DNA of 64,000 bases from Escherichia coli (GTDB lineage: Bacteria; Pseudomonadota; Gammaproteobacteria; Enterobacterales; Enterobacteriaceae). Shown piece by piece: positions 40,938-48,095 of the stretch. The notes below the pieces were generated by a model. It was not told where the DNA came from, made no database searches, and was given only the letters and a program-made list of their open reading frames with translations. Position numbers and translations under genes: made by a program. The stretch lies in the NCBI RefSeq assembly GCF_044324785.1, contig NZ_CP172127.1. One strand, given 5' to 3'. Position 1 is the stretch's first letter. The number at the start of each line of letters is the position of its first letter.

Positions 40938-42338
40938 ATGGACCAGAAGCTGTTAACGGATTTCCGCTCAGAACTACTCGATTCACGTTTTGGCGCAAAG
41001 GCCATTTCTACTATCGCGGAGTCAAAACGATTTCCGCTGCATGAAATGCGCGATGATGTCGCATTCCAGATTATCAATGATGAATTATATCTTGATGGCA
41101 ACGCTCGTCAGAACCTGGCCACTTTTTGCCAGACCTGGGACGACGAAAACGTCCATAAATTGATGGATTTGTCGATCAATAAAAACTGGATCGACAAAGA
41201 AGAATATCCGCAATCTGCAGCCATCGACCTGCGTTGCGTAAACATGGTTGCCGATCTGTGGCATGCGCCTGCACCGAAAAATGGTCAGGCCGTTGGCACC
41301 AACACCATTGGTTCTTCCGAGGCCTGTATGCTCGGCGGGATGGCGATGAAATGGCGTTGGCGCAAGCGTATGGAAGCCGCAGGTAAGCCGACCAACAAAC
41401 CAAACCTGGTGTGCGGTCCGGTACAAATCTGCTGGCATAAATTCGCCCGCTACTGGGATGTGGAGCTGCGTGAGATCCCTATGCGCCCCGGTCAGTTGTT
41501 TATGGACCCGAAACGCATGATTGAAGCCTGCGACGAAAACACCATCGGCGTGGTGCCGACTTTCGGCGTGACCTACACCGGTAACTATGAGTTCCCGCAA
41601 CCGCTGCACGATGCGCTGGATAAATTCCAGGCCGACACCGGTATCGACATCGACATGCACATCGACGCTGCCAGCGGTGGCTTCCTGGCACCGTTCGTTG
41701 CCCCGGATATCGTCTGGGACTTCCGCCTGCCGCGTGTGAAATCGATCAGTGCTTCAGGCCATAAATTCGGTCTGGCTCCGCTGGGCTGCGGCTGGGTTAT
41801 CTGGCGTGATGAAGAAGCGCTGCCGCAGGAACTGGTGTTCAACGTTGACTACCTCGGTGGTCAGATTGGGACTTTCGCCATCAACTTCTCCCGCCCGGCG
41901 GGTCAGGTGATTGCACAGTACTATGAATTCCTGCGCCTTGGTCGTGAAGGCTATACCAAAGTACAGAACGCTTCCTACCAGGTTGCCGCTTATCTCGCGG
42001 ATGAAATCGCCAAACTGGGGCCGTATGAGTTCATCTGTACCGGTCGCCCGGACGAAGGCATCCCGGCGGTTTGCTTCAAACTGAAAGATGGTGAAGACCC
42101 GGGATACACCCTGTATGACCTCTCTGAACGTCTGCGTCTGCGCGGCTGGCAGGTTCCGGCCTTCACTCTCGGCGGTGAAGCCACTGACATCGTGGTGATG
42201 CGCATTATGTGTCGTCGCGGCTTCGAAATGGACTTTGCTGAACTGTTGCTGGAAGACTACAAAGCCTCCCTGAAATATCTCAGCGATCACCCGAAACTGC
42301 AGGGTATTGCCCAGCAGAACAGCTTTAAACACACCTGA
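40938..42338 (+). CDS. gadA: Glutamate decarboxylase GadA
   Basis: 466 aa from [15 protein letters not shown]; PLP-dependent decarboxylase; adjacent to gadX, which distinguishes it from gadB. Confidence 0.93.
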
Positions 42339-42356
42339 TAACATAACGTTGTAAAA

Positions 42357-42404
42357 ACCGAATGCCCAACCTTTAAAAAACAGTTGGGCATTCGGTTGCT
42401 TATT
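42357..42404 (+). terminator. Rho-independent terminator after gadA
   Basis: accgaatgcccaac ... gttgggcattcggt hairpin followed by tgcttatt. Confidence 0.7.
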
Positions 42405-42697
42405 AATAGCAATAATATATTGGCTGTCTATTCATCGTGTTGATAAGATATATGTTATATGAATGTTTATTCAATGTAACGGATACTTCCAATGTCACGG
42501 CAAGGGATTATTTGCTTACTATTAATTTCACTGCGTTCTTAAGCACGCCTTTTGTATTATAAATCCAGTCATCCTGCCCGTAGATTATCATCCTGTTTTC
42601 CCGCTTCGTTTAAATTTATTTATCAATCAATTTGACTTAAGAGGGCGGCGTGCTACATTAATAAACAGTAATATGTTTATGTAATATTAAGCCAACT

Positions 42698-43522
42698 ATG
42701 CAATCACTACATGGGAATTGTCTAATTGCGTACGCAAGACATAAATATATTCTCACCATGGTTAATGGTGAATATCGCTATTTTAATGGCGGTGACCTGG
42801 TTTTTGCGGATGCAAGCCAAATTCGAGTAGATAAGTGTGTTGAACATTTCATATTAGTTTCAAGGGATACGCTTTCATTATTTCTCCCGATGCTCAAGGA
42901 GGAGGCATTAAAACTTCATGCACATAAAAAAGTTCCTTCATTACTCGTTCATCACTGTACCAGAGATATTCCTGTTTTTCAGGAAGTTGCGCAACTATCG
43001 CAGAATAAGAATCTTCGCTATGCAGAAACGCTACGTAAAAGAGCATTAATCTTTGCGCTGTTATCTGTTTTTCTGGAGGATGAGCAGTTTATACCGCTAC
43101 TTCTGAACGTTTTGCAACCGAACATGCGAACACGAGTTTGTACGGTTATCAATAATAATATCGCACATGAGTGGACACTAGCCCGAATCGCCAGCGAGCT
43201 GTTGATGAGTCCAAGCCTGTTAAAGAAAAAATTGCGCGAAGAAGAGACTTCATATTCACAGTTGCTTACTGAGTGTAGAATGCAACGTGCTTTGCAACTT
43301 ATTGTTATACATGGTTTTTCAATTAAGCGAGTTGCAGTGTCCTGTGGATATCACAGCGTGTCGTATTTCATTTACGTTTTTCGAAATTATTATGGGATGA
43401 CGCCCACAGAGTATCAGGAGCGATCAGCGCAGGGATTGCCGAACCGTGACTCGGCGGCAAGTATTGTTGCACAAGGGAATTTTTACGGCACTGACCGTTC
43501 TGCGGAAGGAATAAGATTGTAG
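42698..43522 (+). CDS. gadX: AraC-family acid resistance regulator GadX
   Basis: 274 aa with C-terminal AraC HTH. Confidence 0.92.
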   Translation: MQSLHGNCLIAYARHKYILTMVNGEYRYFNGGDLVFADASQIRVDKCVEHFILVSRDTLSLFLPMLKEEALKLHAHKKVPSLLVHHCTRDIPVFQEVAQLSQNKNLRYAETLRKRALIFALLSVFLEDEQFIPLLLNVLQPNMRTRVCTVINNNIAHEWTLARIASELLMSPSLLKKKLREEETSYSQLLTECRMQRALQLIVIHGFSIKRVAVSCGYHSVSYFIYVFRNYYGMTPTEYQERSAQGLPNRDSAASIVAQGNFYGTDRSAEGIRL

Positions 43523-43539
43523 AGTTTTACTCAGAGATA

Positions 43540-43644
43540 AAAAAAACCCGGCATAGGGGACCGGGAAGAGGATAGTCTGCCGTCTCCAGACTAATAAACC
43601 GTTATAACACTCCCTGTTGGCACGGGAAACTTTGTGCTCTCAGT
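43540..43644 (-). ncRNA. gadY: GadY small regulatory RNA
   Basis: Minus-strand sequence actgagagcacaaagtttcccgtgccaacaggg...cccctatgccgggtttttttt matches recalled 105-nt GadY; terminator hairpin plus U-run at the 3' end; convergent with gadX. Confidence 0.8.
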
Positions 43645-43890
43645 AAGTTAAATATAACTTTTACTGGAAATAAGATCAGCCATTTTTTTATAAACATAAG
43701 CTATACGCTGTGCGAAAATATATTCGTGCTGCATTTACTTATTATCAATTAACTGTTATGCAAAACTACTTTGTGGATAAATTTTGGTCCTACCAAATCT
43801 GGCAGTTTTTGCGCTAAGAAACAGTCTGGCATCATTTCATTAGTATACTGAAATTGAAATAATCGCAGTAATGAAATATAAGGGATAGTC

Positions 43891-44619
43891 ATGACTCATG
43901 TCTGCTCGGTGATCCTCGTTCGTCGTTCATTTGATATTTATCATGAACAGCAAAAAATATCGTTGCACAACGAGAGTATCCTGTTACTGGATAAAAATTT
44001 GGCAGACGATTTTGCGTTTTGTTCACCGGATACGCGACGACTGGATATCGATGAGCTGACAGTTTGCCATTACTTACAAAATATTCGTCAGATACCACGC
44101 AATTTAGGGTTACATAGCAAAGACCGTCTGTTAATTAACCAGTCACCCCCCATGCCGCTGGTGACGGCGATTTTTGATAGTTTCAATGAATCAGGGGTAA
44201 ATTCACCGATACTGAGCAAAATGCTCTATCTTTCCTGTTTATCGATGTTTTCTCATAAGAAAGAACTGATCCCCTTACTTTTCAATAGTATCAGTACTGT
44301 TTCAGGAAAAGTTGAACGCCTTATTAGCTTTGATATCGCCAAACGTTGGTATCTGCGCGATATCGCGGAAAGAATGTATACCAGCGAGAGTCTCATCAAA
44401 AAAAAGTTGCAGGATGAAAATACCTGTTTCAGTAAAATATTACTCGCCTCCAGGATGTCGATGGCCAGACGATTACTCGAGTTACGTCAAATTCCTCTGC
44501 ATACTATTGCGGAAAAATGTGGATATAGCAGTACGTCGTACTTTATAAACACATTTCGACAATATTATGGTGTAACGCCACATCAGTTTGCGCAACATTC
44601 GCCAGGTACCTTTTCCTGA
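43891..44619 (+). CDS. gadW: AraC-family acid resistance regulator GadW
   Basis: 242 aa with AraC HTH. Confidence 0.92.
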   Translation: MTHVCSVILVRRSFDIYHEQQKISLHNESILLLDKNLADDFAFCSPDTRRLDIDELTVCHYLQNIRQIPRNLGLHSKDRLLINQSPPMPLVTAIFDSFNESGVNSPILSKMLYLSCLSMFSHKKELIPLLFNSISTVSGKVERLISFDIAKRWYLRDIAERMYTSESLIKKKLQDENTCFSKILLASRMSMARRLLELRQIPLHTIAEKCGYSSTSYFINTFRQYYGVTPHQFAQHSPGTFS

Positions 44620-44763
44620 CATATTTCGCATTTGAATATTGGTCAGGATCTCACACCTGCTTCATGTGAAACTCTTCCCTGATGATTTCTGCCGGGCTAC
44701 CGGCTAGTTCTCTTTCGCAGTTTGCCAGGCGGTATAGGTATTTTCAGGAGGAAAAGACTCGGC

Positions 44764-45045
44764 ATGTTTGGGATTATTAAGCTGACAATTCATACGATTA
44801 CGGGAATGTGGGTCAGTATTGTGCTGTTCAAATTGATGACGAATGGCTGGAGTGGTTTCTACTTTCAGTGCTGTGTACTAAGCCTGGTATTCCTGACGGT
44901 TAGCTGGTTGTTGAGTGGTGAATGGTTAGCAGGAAAGAGTAAGGCTGAACCTTCACGTTCAACCTTACTCTCATTTACACGTTACGCTTTTTTAAAGCGG
45001 GCAAAGAGATGTTCCACTACAACGAAAAAGACCGGAACGAAGTAA
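44764..45045 (+). CDS. Candidate small membrane protein ORF (93 aa) in the gadW-mdtF spacer
   Basis: AGGAGG at 44746-44751, ATG at 44764; two hydrophobic segments; 3' end overlaps the mdtF 3' end by about 60 nt; unverified. Confidence 0.25.
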
Positions 45046-48000
45046 ATGGCCAGCACTGTTGCGGCAAACATCCCGCCCATCACGCCGGTACCTACCGCGT
45101 TTTGCGCGCCAGAACCGGCACCATGACTGATAACCAGCGGCAGCACGCCGAGAATAAAGGCCAGAGAGGTCATCAGGATTGGGCGTAAACGCATTCGCGC
45201 CGCTTCGATGATCGCCTCTATCGGCGTTTTCCCTTCTTTCTGCATCATCTCAACGGCAAATTCGACAATCAGGATGGCGTTCTTGGCAGAAAGCCCGATG
45301 GTGGTCAGCAAACCAACCTGGAAGTAGACATCATTACTTAAGCCGCGTAGATCGGTGGCCAGTAATGCGCCAACGACGCCTAACGGTACAACCAACATCA
45401 CCGAGAACGGAATTGACCAGCTCTCATAAAGTGCGGCGAGGGCGAGGAACACCACGACCAGTGAAATGGCATACAGCGCAGGAGCCTGGTTTGAGGATAA
45501 CGCTTCCTGATACGACAGTCCGGTCCATGAGTAGCCGACGCCTGCCGGAAGTTTAGCGACCAGGTCTGCCATAAATTTCATAGCGTCACCGGTACTTTTC
45601 CCGGCCGCCGCTTCACCTAAAATCTCCATTGACGGGATGCCGTTGTAGCGTTCCAGTCGCGGTGAACCATAGGTCCATTCGGTAGACGAGTAGGCAGAAA
45701 GCGGTGCCATCGTGCCAGAGGCGTTGCGTACATACCATTGGTTGATGTTATCCGGCAACATACGGAACGGCGTGCCTGCCTGGACATACACTTTTTTCAC
45801 CCGCCCCTGGTTGAGGAAGTCGTTCACGTAGCTGCTGCCGAAGGCGGTGGAAATTGTCTGGTTGATATCAGACAGCGCCACGCCCATTGCCTCGGCTTTC
45901 GCGGCGTTGACGTTCACTTTGAACATCGGCGTATCTTCCAGGCCGTTCGGGCGTACCCCGGTGACTTGATTTGGTGATTGCGCTGCCAGTGATAATAGCT
46001 CGTTTCGCGCCTGGGTCAGTTTTTCGTGCCCCAGGTTACCGTTGTCCAGCAGTTCCATATCAAAACCTGACGCGGTACCCAGTTCAGCCACCGCGGGTAA
46101 ATTGAACGGGAAGACGACGGCTTTATTGATACTGCTTAACGCAATCATTGCCCGCTGAATGATCGCGGTAACCGAGTTTTCCTCACCGACACGTTCAGAC
46201 CACGGCTTGAGACTGATAAACGCCAGGCCGTTGTTTTGCCCCTGGCCGCTGAAGCCAAAGCCGCCAACGGTAAATACCGACTGGACATTATCTTTCTCTT
46301 TAGTCAGATAATAATCCGTCACCTGTTGCAGCACTTTCGTGGTGTTAACCATGGTGGCACCGGAAGGTAACTGCGCGGTGGTCATAAATACCCCCTGATC
46401 CTCTTCTGGTAAGAAAGAGGTCGGCGTACGCAGGAACAGCACCGCCATCCCAGCGCAAATCAGCAGGTAGACCACCATGTAGCGACCGGTACAACGCAAC
46501 AGCGAGCGGGTGCTGTCGGTATAGTGCTGAGTTGATTTTTCAAACAGCGTGTTGAAGCGTGCGAACAGGGCGTTAGGTTTGTGACCGCCTTCCGGCGCGG
46601 CTTTCAGAATGGTGGCGCACAGGGCAGGGGTCAGGCTCATTGCCACAAATACTGAAAGCAGCATGGAGGAGATTAGCGTGATGGAGAACTGGCGGTAGAT
46701 CTCCCCGGTCGCACCGCTCATAAAGGCCATCGGCATAAACACTGCGGAAAGAACAACGGCAATCCCGACCAGCGCACGTTGGATCTGCCCCATCGATTTA
46801 TGCGTCGCTTCCTTCGGCGGTAGCTTATCTTCTGCAATGACACGCTCGACGTTCTCCACCACCACGATGGCGTCATCCACCAGTAACCCTATCGCCAGCA
46901 CCATCCCGAACATAGTTAACGTGTTGATGGTGAAACCGACCGCCGACAAGATCGCAAACGTCCCGAGAATAACCACCGGTACGGCAATCGTCGGGATGAT
47001 TGTGGCACGGAAATTCTGCAAAAACAGATACATTACCAGGAAGACGAGGATGATAGCCTCAACCAGTGTTTTAAAAACTTCCTGAATAGAAATTTCGATA
47101 AACGGCGTGGTGTCGTAAGGATAAACCGTCTTCAGACTTGCGGGGAAATAGGCTGATAAACGGTTCAGCTCCTCTTTGACTGCCCGCGAGGTATCCAGGG
47201 CGTTCGCTCCGGCAGCCAGTTTGATGGCGATCCCGGCCGCAGGTTTGCCGTTATAGCGCGCCACGGTGGAATAATCTTCCGCCCCAAGTTCGACGCGGGC
47301 GACATCACGCAGCAGCACTTGCGAACCATCTTGCTGAACTTTCAACAGGATTTTGCCAAATTCTTCCGGCGTTTGCAGACGCGTCTGCACAATGATCGAG
47401 GCGTTCAGTTGCTGGTCTGCCGCCTGTGGCATGCCACCCAGTTGACCACCAGAAATCTGGTTGTTTTGTACCTTAATCTGGGAAATAACATCGGAAGGTA
47501 CCAGGTTATATTTATTGAGTTTTTGCGGGTCCAGCCAGATACGCATGGCGTACTCGGAACCAAAGAGCTGTACGCTACCAACGCCCGCGGTACGGCTTAG
47601 CGGGTCTTTAATATTAGACGCTACATAGTCCGCGATATCGTACTGGTTGAGGCTGCCGTTATCAGAAATAAACGCCGCTACCATCAGGATATTACTGCTC
47701 GATTTATCGACGCTGATCCCCTGCTGCTGCACCGCTTCAGGTAATGAAGGCATAGCGAGTTGCAGTTTATTTTGCACCTGAACCTGTGCGATATCAGGAG
47801 ATGTCCCAGTCTCGAAGGTCAGAGTGATAGAGGCATTGCCCGCCGCATCACTGGTTGAAGACATGTACATCAGGCCATCAAGCCCATTCATATTTTGCTC
47901 AATCACCTGAGTGACCGAGTCTTCTACCGTTTGCGCATCGGCACCTGGATAGGTAGCGCTGACGGTAATGGTCGGTGGCGCAATCTGCGGATACTGCGCA

Positions 48001-48095
48001 ACCGGTAAGTTCATGATCGCCAGACCACCTGCAAGCATCATAATAATGGCAAGTACCCAGGCAAAAACCGGGCGATCAATAAAATAGTTAGCCAT
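44982..48095 (-). CDS. mdtF: RND multidrug efflux pump inner membrane subunit MdtF
   Basis: 1037 aa AcrB-like transporter. Confidence 0.93.

Follow-up and report, generated by a model that had tools for sequence, protein, structure and literature searches.

The previously reported ORF sORF15/XECs371 between gadW and mdtF of Escherichia coli is a gene under purifying selection encoding a predicted two-helix membrane protein

AcrZ, a 49-aa protein with one transmembrane (TM) helix, is an accessory protein of the RND pump AcrB, of which MdtF is a homologue (paralogue), and its gene, acrZ, is not adjacent to acrB. The protein considered here resembles AcrZ in being a small, predicted inner-membrane protein of E. 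coli for which an RND permease is a plausible partner; unlike AcrZ, it has two TM helices and a basic tail, and its ORF abuts mdtF, whereas acrZ lies apart from acrB. No sequence relationship between the two was found by Pfam (E up to 10) or NCBIfam scans, the likeness being one of functional analogy only. Co-purification of AcrZ with MdtF has been described in a cell-free study (PMC11539335). A second comparison is offered by asa, pop and laoB, antisense genes of E. coli O157:H7 that overlap in part and which, like the present ORF, have a 3' end antisense to an annotated gene and are skipped by annotation pipelines. Here, in contrast, the overlap with the neighbouring gene covers only 64 of the 282 nt of the ORF and does not exist in Escherichia fergusonii, and the core under selection is intergenic.

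The closest description, however, is of the ORF itself, which has been published twice. In O157:H7 Sakai it was reported as XECs371, with RIBOseq RPKM values of 23-49 in two media, a predicted inner-membrane location with two TM helices, and a CTG-extended start giving 118 aa (Hücker et al., 2017, PLoS One, PMC5597208). Ribo-seq inspection of the gadW 3' UTR led to its discovery as sORF15, listed in Table S7 at NC_000913.3:3663464-3663745(-) with the protein MFGIIKL...TGTK (Schumacher et al., 2023, mSystems, PMC10746267). Between pH 4.4 and pH 7.6, sORF15 rose by a log2FC of 4.21 in Ribo-seq (padj 1e-38, ~18-fold) and of 4.03 at the RNA level, the Ribo-seq log2FC of gadW in the same comparison being 3.03; DeepTMHMM assigned it two TM helices (>90%), and a C-terminal 3xFLAG fusion expressed from a pBAD24 plasmid gave a Western band (PMC10746267). 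As the tag is C-terminal, this band implies that the full sORF15 frame, tail included, can be translated.

The present study characterised this ORF in a stretch of 64,000 nt of E. coli DNA (contig NZ_CP172127.1 of assembly GCF_044324785.1; hereafter the window), which contains the regulatory end of the acid fitness island of this species. An earlier note, made from the letters alone, had flagged a 93-aa frame with the features of a small membrane protein in the gadW-mdtF spacer. The flagged frame is a genuine gene, already known as the translated candidates XECs371 and sORF15: window positions 44764-45045 map onto the coordinates of sORF15, whose protein is identical at 92 of 93 residues (R65 here, C65 in K-12), and the XECs371 sequence contains the whole 93-aa protein, its CTG extension not being conserved. 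It is thus the same ORF, with nothing different in kind, and the ribosome profiling suggested in the earlier note as a check exists already, with acid-induced footprints at exactly this ORF (PMC10746267) and RIBOseq signal in Sakai (PMC5597208). The finding itself being known, the value of the analysis is confirmatory; the dN/dS estimates, the 54-aa form in E. fergusonii and a hairpin embedded in the frame are modest additions absent from both papers. They raise the ORF from a ribosome-profiling candidate to a gene under purifying selection genus-wide, which justifies its annotation and a search for its partner. The features discussed below are located in the window as follows.

42698-43522, plus strand: gadX
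43534-43647, minus strand: GadY sRNA (Rfam, 147 bits)
43891-44619, plus strand: gadW, the upstream co-directional gene and presumed source of the ORF transcript
44620-44745, plus strand: variable spacer between gadW and the Shine-Dalgarno (SD) sequence, holding a weak hairpin (44691-44704) and sORF14 (44666-44707)
44746-44751, plus strand: SD sequence AGGAGG, by direct reading of the sequence
44764-45045, plus strand: 93-aa ORF (sORF15/XECs371), from ATG at 44764 to TAA at 45043-45045
44764-44928, plus strand: conserved core, codons 1-55 (from pN/pS, AF2 and hydropathy)
44929-45042, plus strand: basic C-terminal tail, codons 56-93 (from charge and AF2), absent from E. fergusonii
44935-44972, minus strand: 16-bp hairpin ~10 nt downstream of the mdtF stop, inside ORF codons 58-70
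44982-45045, both strands: 64 nt in which the ORF 3' end lies antisense to the stop and the final 20 codons of mdtF
44982-48095, minus strand: mdtF, a convergent RND permease gene

The acid fitness island is among the best-studied stress loci, yet a conserved, acid-induced membrane protein is absent from its K-12 and RefSeq annotation. In K-12 MG1655 (NC_000913.3), where gadW and mdtF flank the ORF in the same arrangement, nothing is annotated between mdtF (end 3663527) and gadW (start 3663890), and no feature stands at the ORF in any listed PGAP-annotated complete E. coli genome. The impression of an unannotated frame therefore holds for RefSeq/PGAP and fails for GenBank, where the identical protein is called 'hypothetical protein' in many GenBank/ENA submissions, its 90%-identity cluster counting 703 members. 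A literature search on the mdtF-gadW intergenic region and on follow-up of sORF15 returned no further paper and no functional study, and the locus does not appear in the PIRT-Seq paper or its supplements.

Direct reading of positions 44746-45045, together with the ORF list, bears out the translation signals described in the earlier note: AGGAGG is followed by the 12-nt spacer AAAAGACTCGGC and by an ATG (44764-44766) that opens the 93-aa frame. The ORF starts within the 362-nt gap between gadW and mdtF, and its 3' end enters the convergent mdtF by 64 nt, close to the approximately 60 nt first estimated. How far such a frame could arise by chance was gauged with composition shuffles of the window, which yield ~18 ATG-initiated ORFs of at least 93 aa; because so many equally long frames are expected, length alone is weak evidence. 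From the same shuffles, 0.06 ORFs of at least 93 aa with a perfect AGGAGG within 20 nt upstream were expected, and the window has one, the present ORF. When only 44620-45045 was shuffled, an ORF this long appeared in 1.4% of trials.

These figures bear on the view that the ORF is translated without function, through chance ribosome loading on a gadW 3' UTR that happens to contain an SD sequence and an open frame. The number of long ORFs in shuffled sequence speaks for it, as does an SD spacing longer than optimal, which the earlier note had counted, together with the overlap with mdtF, as a reason to suspect chance. Both worries lose their force on comparison: the SD sequence, the 12-nt spacing and the ATG are kept across nine Escherichia lineages, within which the block TATTTTCAGGAGGAAAA (44740-44756) is invariant, and the overlap with mdtF is missing in the E. 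fergusonii orthologue. The narrow distribution of the protein is a further point in favour of chance translation. No homologue outside Escherichia/Shigella emerged when 1.84 billion representative proteins were searched with a profile and 5.8 billion clusters were searched as well; the matches were only copies from these genera, frameshifted or fragmentary versions of the ORF and one real outlier, the 54-aa form found in E. fergusonii. No family was matched in Pfam or NCBIfam at E up to 10, and neither a sequence-profile search of the PDB nor Foldseek on the AF2 model, itself of low confidence, found a match. Records of 'homologs' at >80-100% identity in Vibrio, Klebsiella, Salmonella, Enterococcus and Staphylococcus have been reported (PMC10746267 Fig. 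S9C; PMC5597208 supplement); as no named homologue was found outside Escherichia/Shigella, these probably represent mislabelled or contaminated assemblies. Many of the low-identity matches (69-84%) were frameshifted calls, at least one of them (L013) coming from an assembly that also has gadW and mdtF in fragments, and such matches were left out as evidence.

Against chance translation stands the substitution pattern across the genus. Loci were collected with a GadW scan of one genome per GTDB species, which gave six Escherichia loci (three E. coli-like lineages, Escherichia sp. E1V33, E. whittamii and E. albertii), and CP025979.1, which we take to be E. marmotae, was added through an exact-protein look-up. 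The nine lineages compared comprise the window, K-12 and seven other Escherichia lineages, E. fergusonii being excluded. The frame is intact and exactly 93 aa long in all nine, and frame-disrupting indels, whose occurrence in close relatives the earlier note had named as one refuting result, are absent: every indel between species falls at 44619-44713, upstream of the SD sequence, and none from 44737 onward, a difference that counts against chance translation. In the 218 nt outside mdtF, variable columns are distributed over the three codon positions as 20/14/41 (chi-square p = 3e-4). Estimates of dN/dS (Nei-Gojobori, each lineage against the window sequence) were as follows.

ORF codons 1-72, outside mdtF: dN/dS 0.07-0.28, with dS up to 0.84
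gadW: dN/dS 0.06-0.11
mdtF, 3' part: dN/dS 0.00-0.02
Antisense frame sharing third positions with the ORF: dN/dS 0.11-0.50
Four other frames of the ORF region: dN/dS mostly 0.4-3 (up to 7)

The antisense frame mimics the signal of selection because it shares third codon positions with the ORF; it is closed by stops, no minus-strand ORF of at least 30 aa being present there. Fisher tests of synonymous against nonsynonymous changes gave p values from 4e-3 to 2e-11 per lineage, and, under random placement of the observed substitutions, the probability that all four divergent lineages retain an open frame was only ~0.005. The encoded protein is under purifying selection, and this selection is specific to the ORF frame. 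With a recognisable, diverged orthologue at the same position in E. fergusonii in addition, chance translation is barely credible as an account of the ORF.

The unit under selection is an N-terminal two-helix hairpin of 55 residues carrying the motif GWSGF-F-CC. In codons 1-55, pN/pS is 0.06-0.23, and residues G28-W-S-G-F32, F34 and C36-C37 are invariant, the 54-aa E. fergusonii homologue included. The two hydrophobic segments of helix length expected from the first reading were recovered by a Kyte-Doolittle scan (19-residue window), with peaks at residues 4-22 (1.68) and 32-50 (1.95). AF2 places helix 1 at residues 2-26 and helix 2 at residues 31-56, joined by the short turn TNGWSG, so that the invariant motif occupies the turn and the start of helix 2. 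The model is of low confidence (mean pLDDT 64, pTM 0.30), and its helices concur with hydropathy on a two-helix membrane hairpin. With two helices of membrane length and positive charge on the cytoplasmic side, the product is predicted to be a two-pass inner-membrane protein; by the positive-inside rule, the N-terminus and the tail would be cytoplasmic and the turn periplasmic.

The E. fergusonii form helps to delimit this unit. In strain ATCC 35469 (CU928158.2), a diverged 54-aa homologue, oriented as in E. coli, is flanked by a gadW-like gene (62% identical) and mdtF. It begins 19 nt past the gadW stop, is not preceded by AGGAGG, carries neither the basic tail nor the mdtF overlap, and ends ahead of a hairpin with a U-tract. 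It shares 49% identity over 41 aa with the window protein, and nucleotide identity by codon position is 0.54/0.79/0.25. With third positions at random level and second positions kept best, this homologue has the pattern of a long-standing coding sequence under selection for hydrophobic residues. Because the E. fergusonii orthologue has no mdtF overlap, the latter probably represents a lineage-specific extension. The TAAGGC closing the E. fergusonii ORF persists in E. coli at 44940-44945, out of frame, and in the pairwise alignment the two lengths differ by 17 nt immediately before it; the frame has been either lengthened in the E. coli/E. albertii/cryptic-clade lineages or shortened in E. fergusonii. 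In the latter genome, a second AraC-type gene and a histidine-phosphatase-family gene are found upstream of the gadW-like gene (CU928158.2, L014 3710-5981), standing in place of the gadX-GadY arrangement.

The remaining part of the ORF, codons 56-93, requires separate treatment. Its basic character, another element of the first description, is confirmed by 11 K/R against 1 D/E in residues 56-93, and AF2 proposes a third helix at residues 64-89. In codons 56-72, pN/pS ranges from 0 to 0.86, with small counts, and residues 73-93 are identical in all nine lineages. Perfect conservation of the tail was considered and rejected as proof of protein-level selection, since mdtF coding and the embedded hairpin explain it. 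The frame first crosses this conserved hairpin and then runs antisense to mdtF, so the conservation of the tail may be borrowed from both. Over codons 74-93, which overlap the highly conserved 3' end of mdtF and have most of their sequence fixed by its coding, third codon positions coincide with those of the mdtF frame, and every substitution is synonymous in both frames. The hairpin at 44935-44972 (minus strand) has a folding energy of -27.3 kcal/mol (z = -6.2); over the nine lineages taken together, paired cells amount to 97.9%, and one compensatory pair occurs beside a loop that varies. At the same place, E. fergusonii has a canonical hairpin followed by a U-tract (L014 6163-6184), and the structure is probably the terminator or a 3'-end hairpin of mdtF. 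The tail thus shows no independent sign of protein-level selection, which is confined to the N-terminal hairpin of helices, and the locus illustrates how the 3' end of a gene can come to reach over the terminator and coding sequence of its neighbour.

It is in this region that a role at the RNA level has to be weighed, according to which gadW read-through works as an antisense RNA on the 3' end of mdtF, or the mdtF terminator accounts for the conservation, the peptide being incidental. The conserved 16-bp hairpin inside the ORF, just past mdtF, would fit such a role, as would an ORF transcript that reaches at least 64 nt antisense into mdtF with no plus-strand terminator found after the ORF, and the nearby GadY sRNA provides a precedent for antisense RNA control in the locus. 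A purely RNA-level explanation nevertheless fails on codons 1-55, which overlap neither the hairpin nor mdtF and have the third-position bias and low pN/pS described above, because neither structure nor antisense pairing produces a substitution bias at third codon positions; E. fergusonii, moreover, retains the peptide without the overlap. An RNA role in place of the protein is accordingly very unlikely, whereas one for the 3' part, as antisense or terminator, is possible alongside it.

Upstream, the spacer between gadW and the SD sequence is variable, and its hairpin at 44691-44704 folds no better than shuffled sequences (z = -0.77). An upstream in-frame start at TTG (44722) or CTG was rejected, given the indels and nonsynonymous changes in this stretch and the absence of the start codon in two lineages. 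A scan for promoter and terminator consensus sequences gave counts at or below chance, with no promoter match and no plus-strand terminator following the ORF. The ORF has been placed in the gadW 3' UTR/transcription unit, with RNA-seq continuity with gadW (PMC10746267). On account of the missing promoter match, this reported continuity, the weak upstream hairpin and the 19-nt spacing between gadW and the ORF in E. fergusonii, the ORF is probably expressed through read-through from gadW.

Two other short frames lie in the same spacer. The weak hairpin GCCGGGCTACCGGC falls within the published 13-aa candidate sORF14 (44666-44707, plus strand, GTG...TAG). Elsewhere in Escherichia, 1-nt indels at ~44684 and at ~44693 and, in one lineage (L004), a deletion of 11 nt break the sORF14 frame, which indicates that, as far as its sequence tells, sORF14 is not conserved as a coding sequence. 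A 32-aa ATG-initiated ORF at 44682-44780 (plus strand; region 44679-44780) overlaps, in a different frame, both the SD sequence and the start of the main ORF. This is XECs372, for which RIBOseq signal was reported and which was classed as 'pseudo' (Hücker et al., 2017, PMC5597208); its conservation is unlikely, since it crosses the indel-rich spacer.

Taken together, the evidence favours, with a probability of roughly 0.8, a genuine gene for a 93-aa inner-membrane protein that is linked to gadW, induced by acid, and probably modulates a larger membrane protein. Under this interpretation, the ORF is probably cotranscribed with gadW, is translated from its own AGGAGG/ATG and is induced ~16-18-fold at pH 4.4. 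The product would have two TM helices, with a short turn between them on the periplasmic side and a basic tail in the cytoplasm, and may bind a larger membrane protein of the acid response, by analogy with AcrZ, MgtS and MgrB. MdtF would be the leading candidate partner, because adjacency to mdtF is kept in every Escherichia lineage examined (10 of 10, gadW adjacency being equally conserved); as an identification of the partner, this is tentative and less likely than not. The bolder version, in which the MdtEF-TolC efflux pump has in this protein a dedicated accessory subunit induced by acid, a two-helix counterpart of AcrZ tuning the activity or substrate range of MdtF at low pH, with a basic tail recruited by overprinting of the mdtF terminator and 3' end, is speculative and rather unlikely.

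A real gene whose partner or role is not MdtF is quite conceivable, if somewhat short of an even chance: the protein could serve GadC or another membrane protein of the island (HdeD, YhiD), or act alone at low pH. Co-expression with gadW at pH 4.4 is compatible with this, and either GadC or MdtF has been suggested as partner (PMC10746267); the invariant GWSGF-F-CC turn could, if the orientation given by the positive-inside rule holds, face the acidified periplasm. The location of gadC outside the neighbourhood of the window and the constancy of the mdtF junction weigh on the other side.

A small, hydrophobic, genus-restricted product that partly overlaps a convergent transcript might also be thought of as a type I toxin-like peptide akin to Hok, Ldr, Ibs or TisB, one that damages membranes when expressed and is held in check by an overlapping antisense RNA. 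This is highly improbable, as no Pfam toxin family was matched at E up to 10, a product of two helices and 93 aa exceeds typical type I toxins, and the tagged protein accumulated to Western-detectable levels from pBAD24, with no toxicity reported (PMC10746267). Nor does Rfam place an antisense sRNA at the ORF; a scan of 42000-46000 at E up to 1 returned only GadY, ~1.1 kb upstream, and a below-threshold match to the snoRNA SNORD35 (E 0.39).

Synonymous divergence falls sharply at the gadW/ORF boundary when window positions 43891-45700 are compared with the loci L003-L009. In the four most diverged lineages, dS is 1.3-2.3 in gadW, 0.39-0.84 in the ORF and 0.55-0.72 in mdtF; the GadW protein is only 75-79% identical in these lineages, and over the 217 codons compared, MdtF shows at most 5 nonsynonymous changes. 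It may be that history or constraint differs between the two halves of the island.

Within E. coli, 59 of 60 evenly sampled complete genomes carry no net indel across 44740-45050. A rare 1-nt deletion at ~44934 (GGAAAG to GGAAG) was seen in a few Logan read assemblies (L011/L012), in which mdtF is intact (full length in L012), and gives a 76-aa product that keeps both helices and loses the basic tail; an exact match to this allele was found in none of 5,426 complete E. coli genomes. A few strains have truncated alleles or IS insertions in the ORF. In NZ_CM129860.1 (H101), the match is split at ~44881, and in an O121 strain (NZ_CP119441.1, L002 1-3000), gadW is replaced by IS1 and IS66-family elements, which adjoin the sequence at position 44804.
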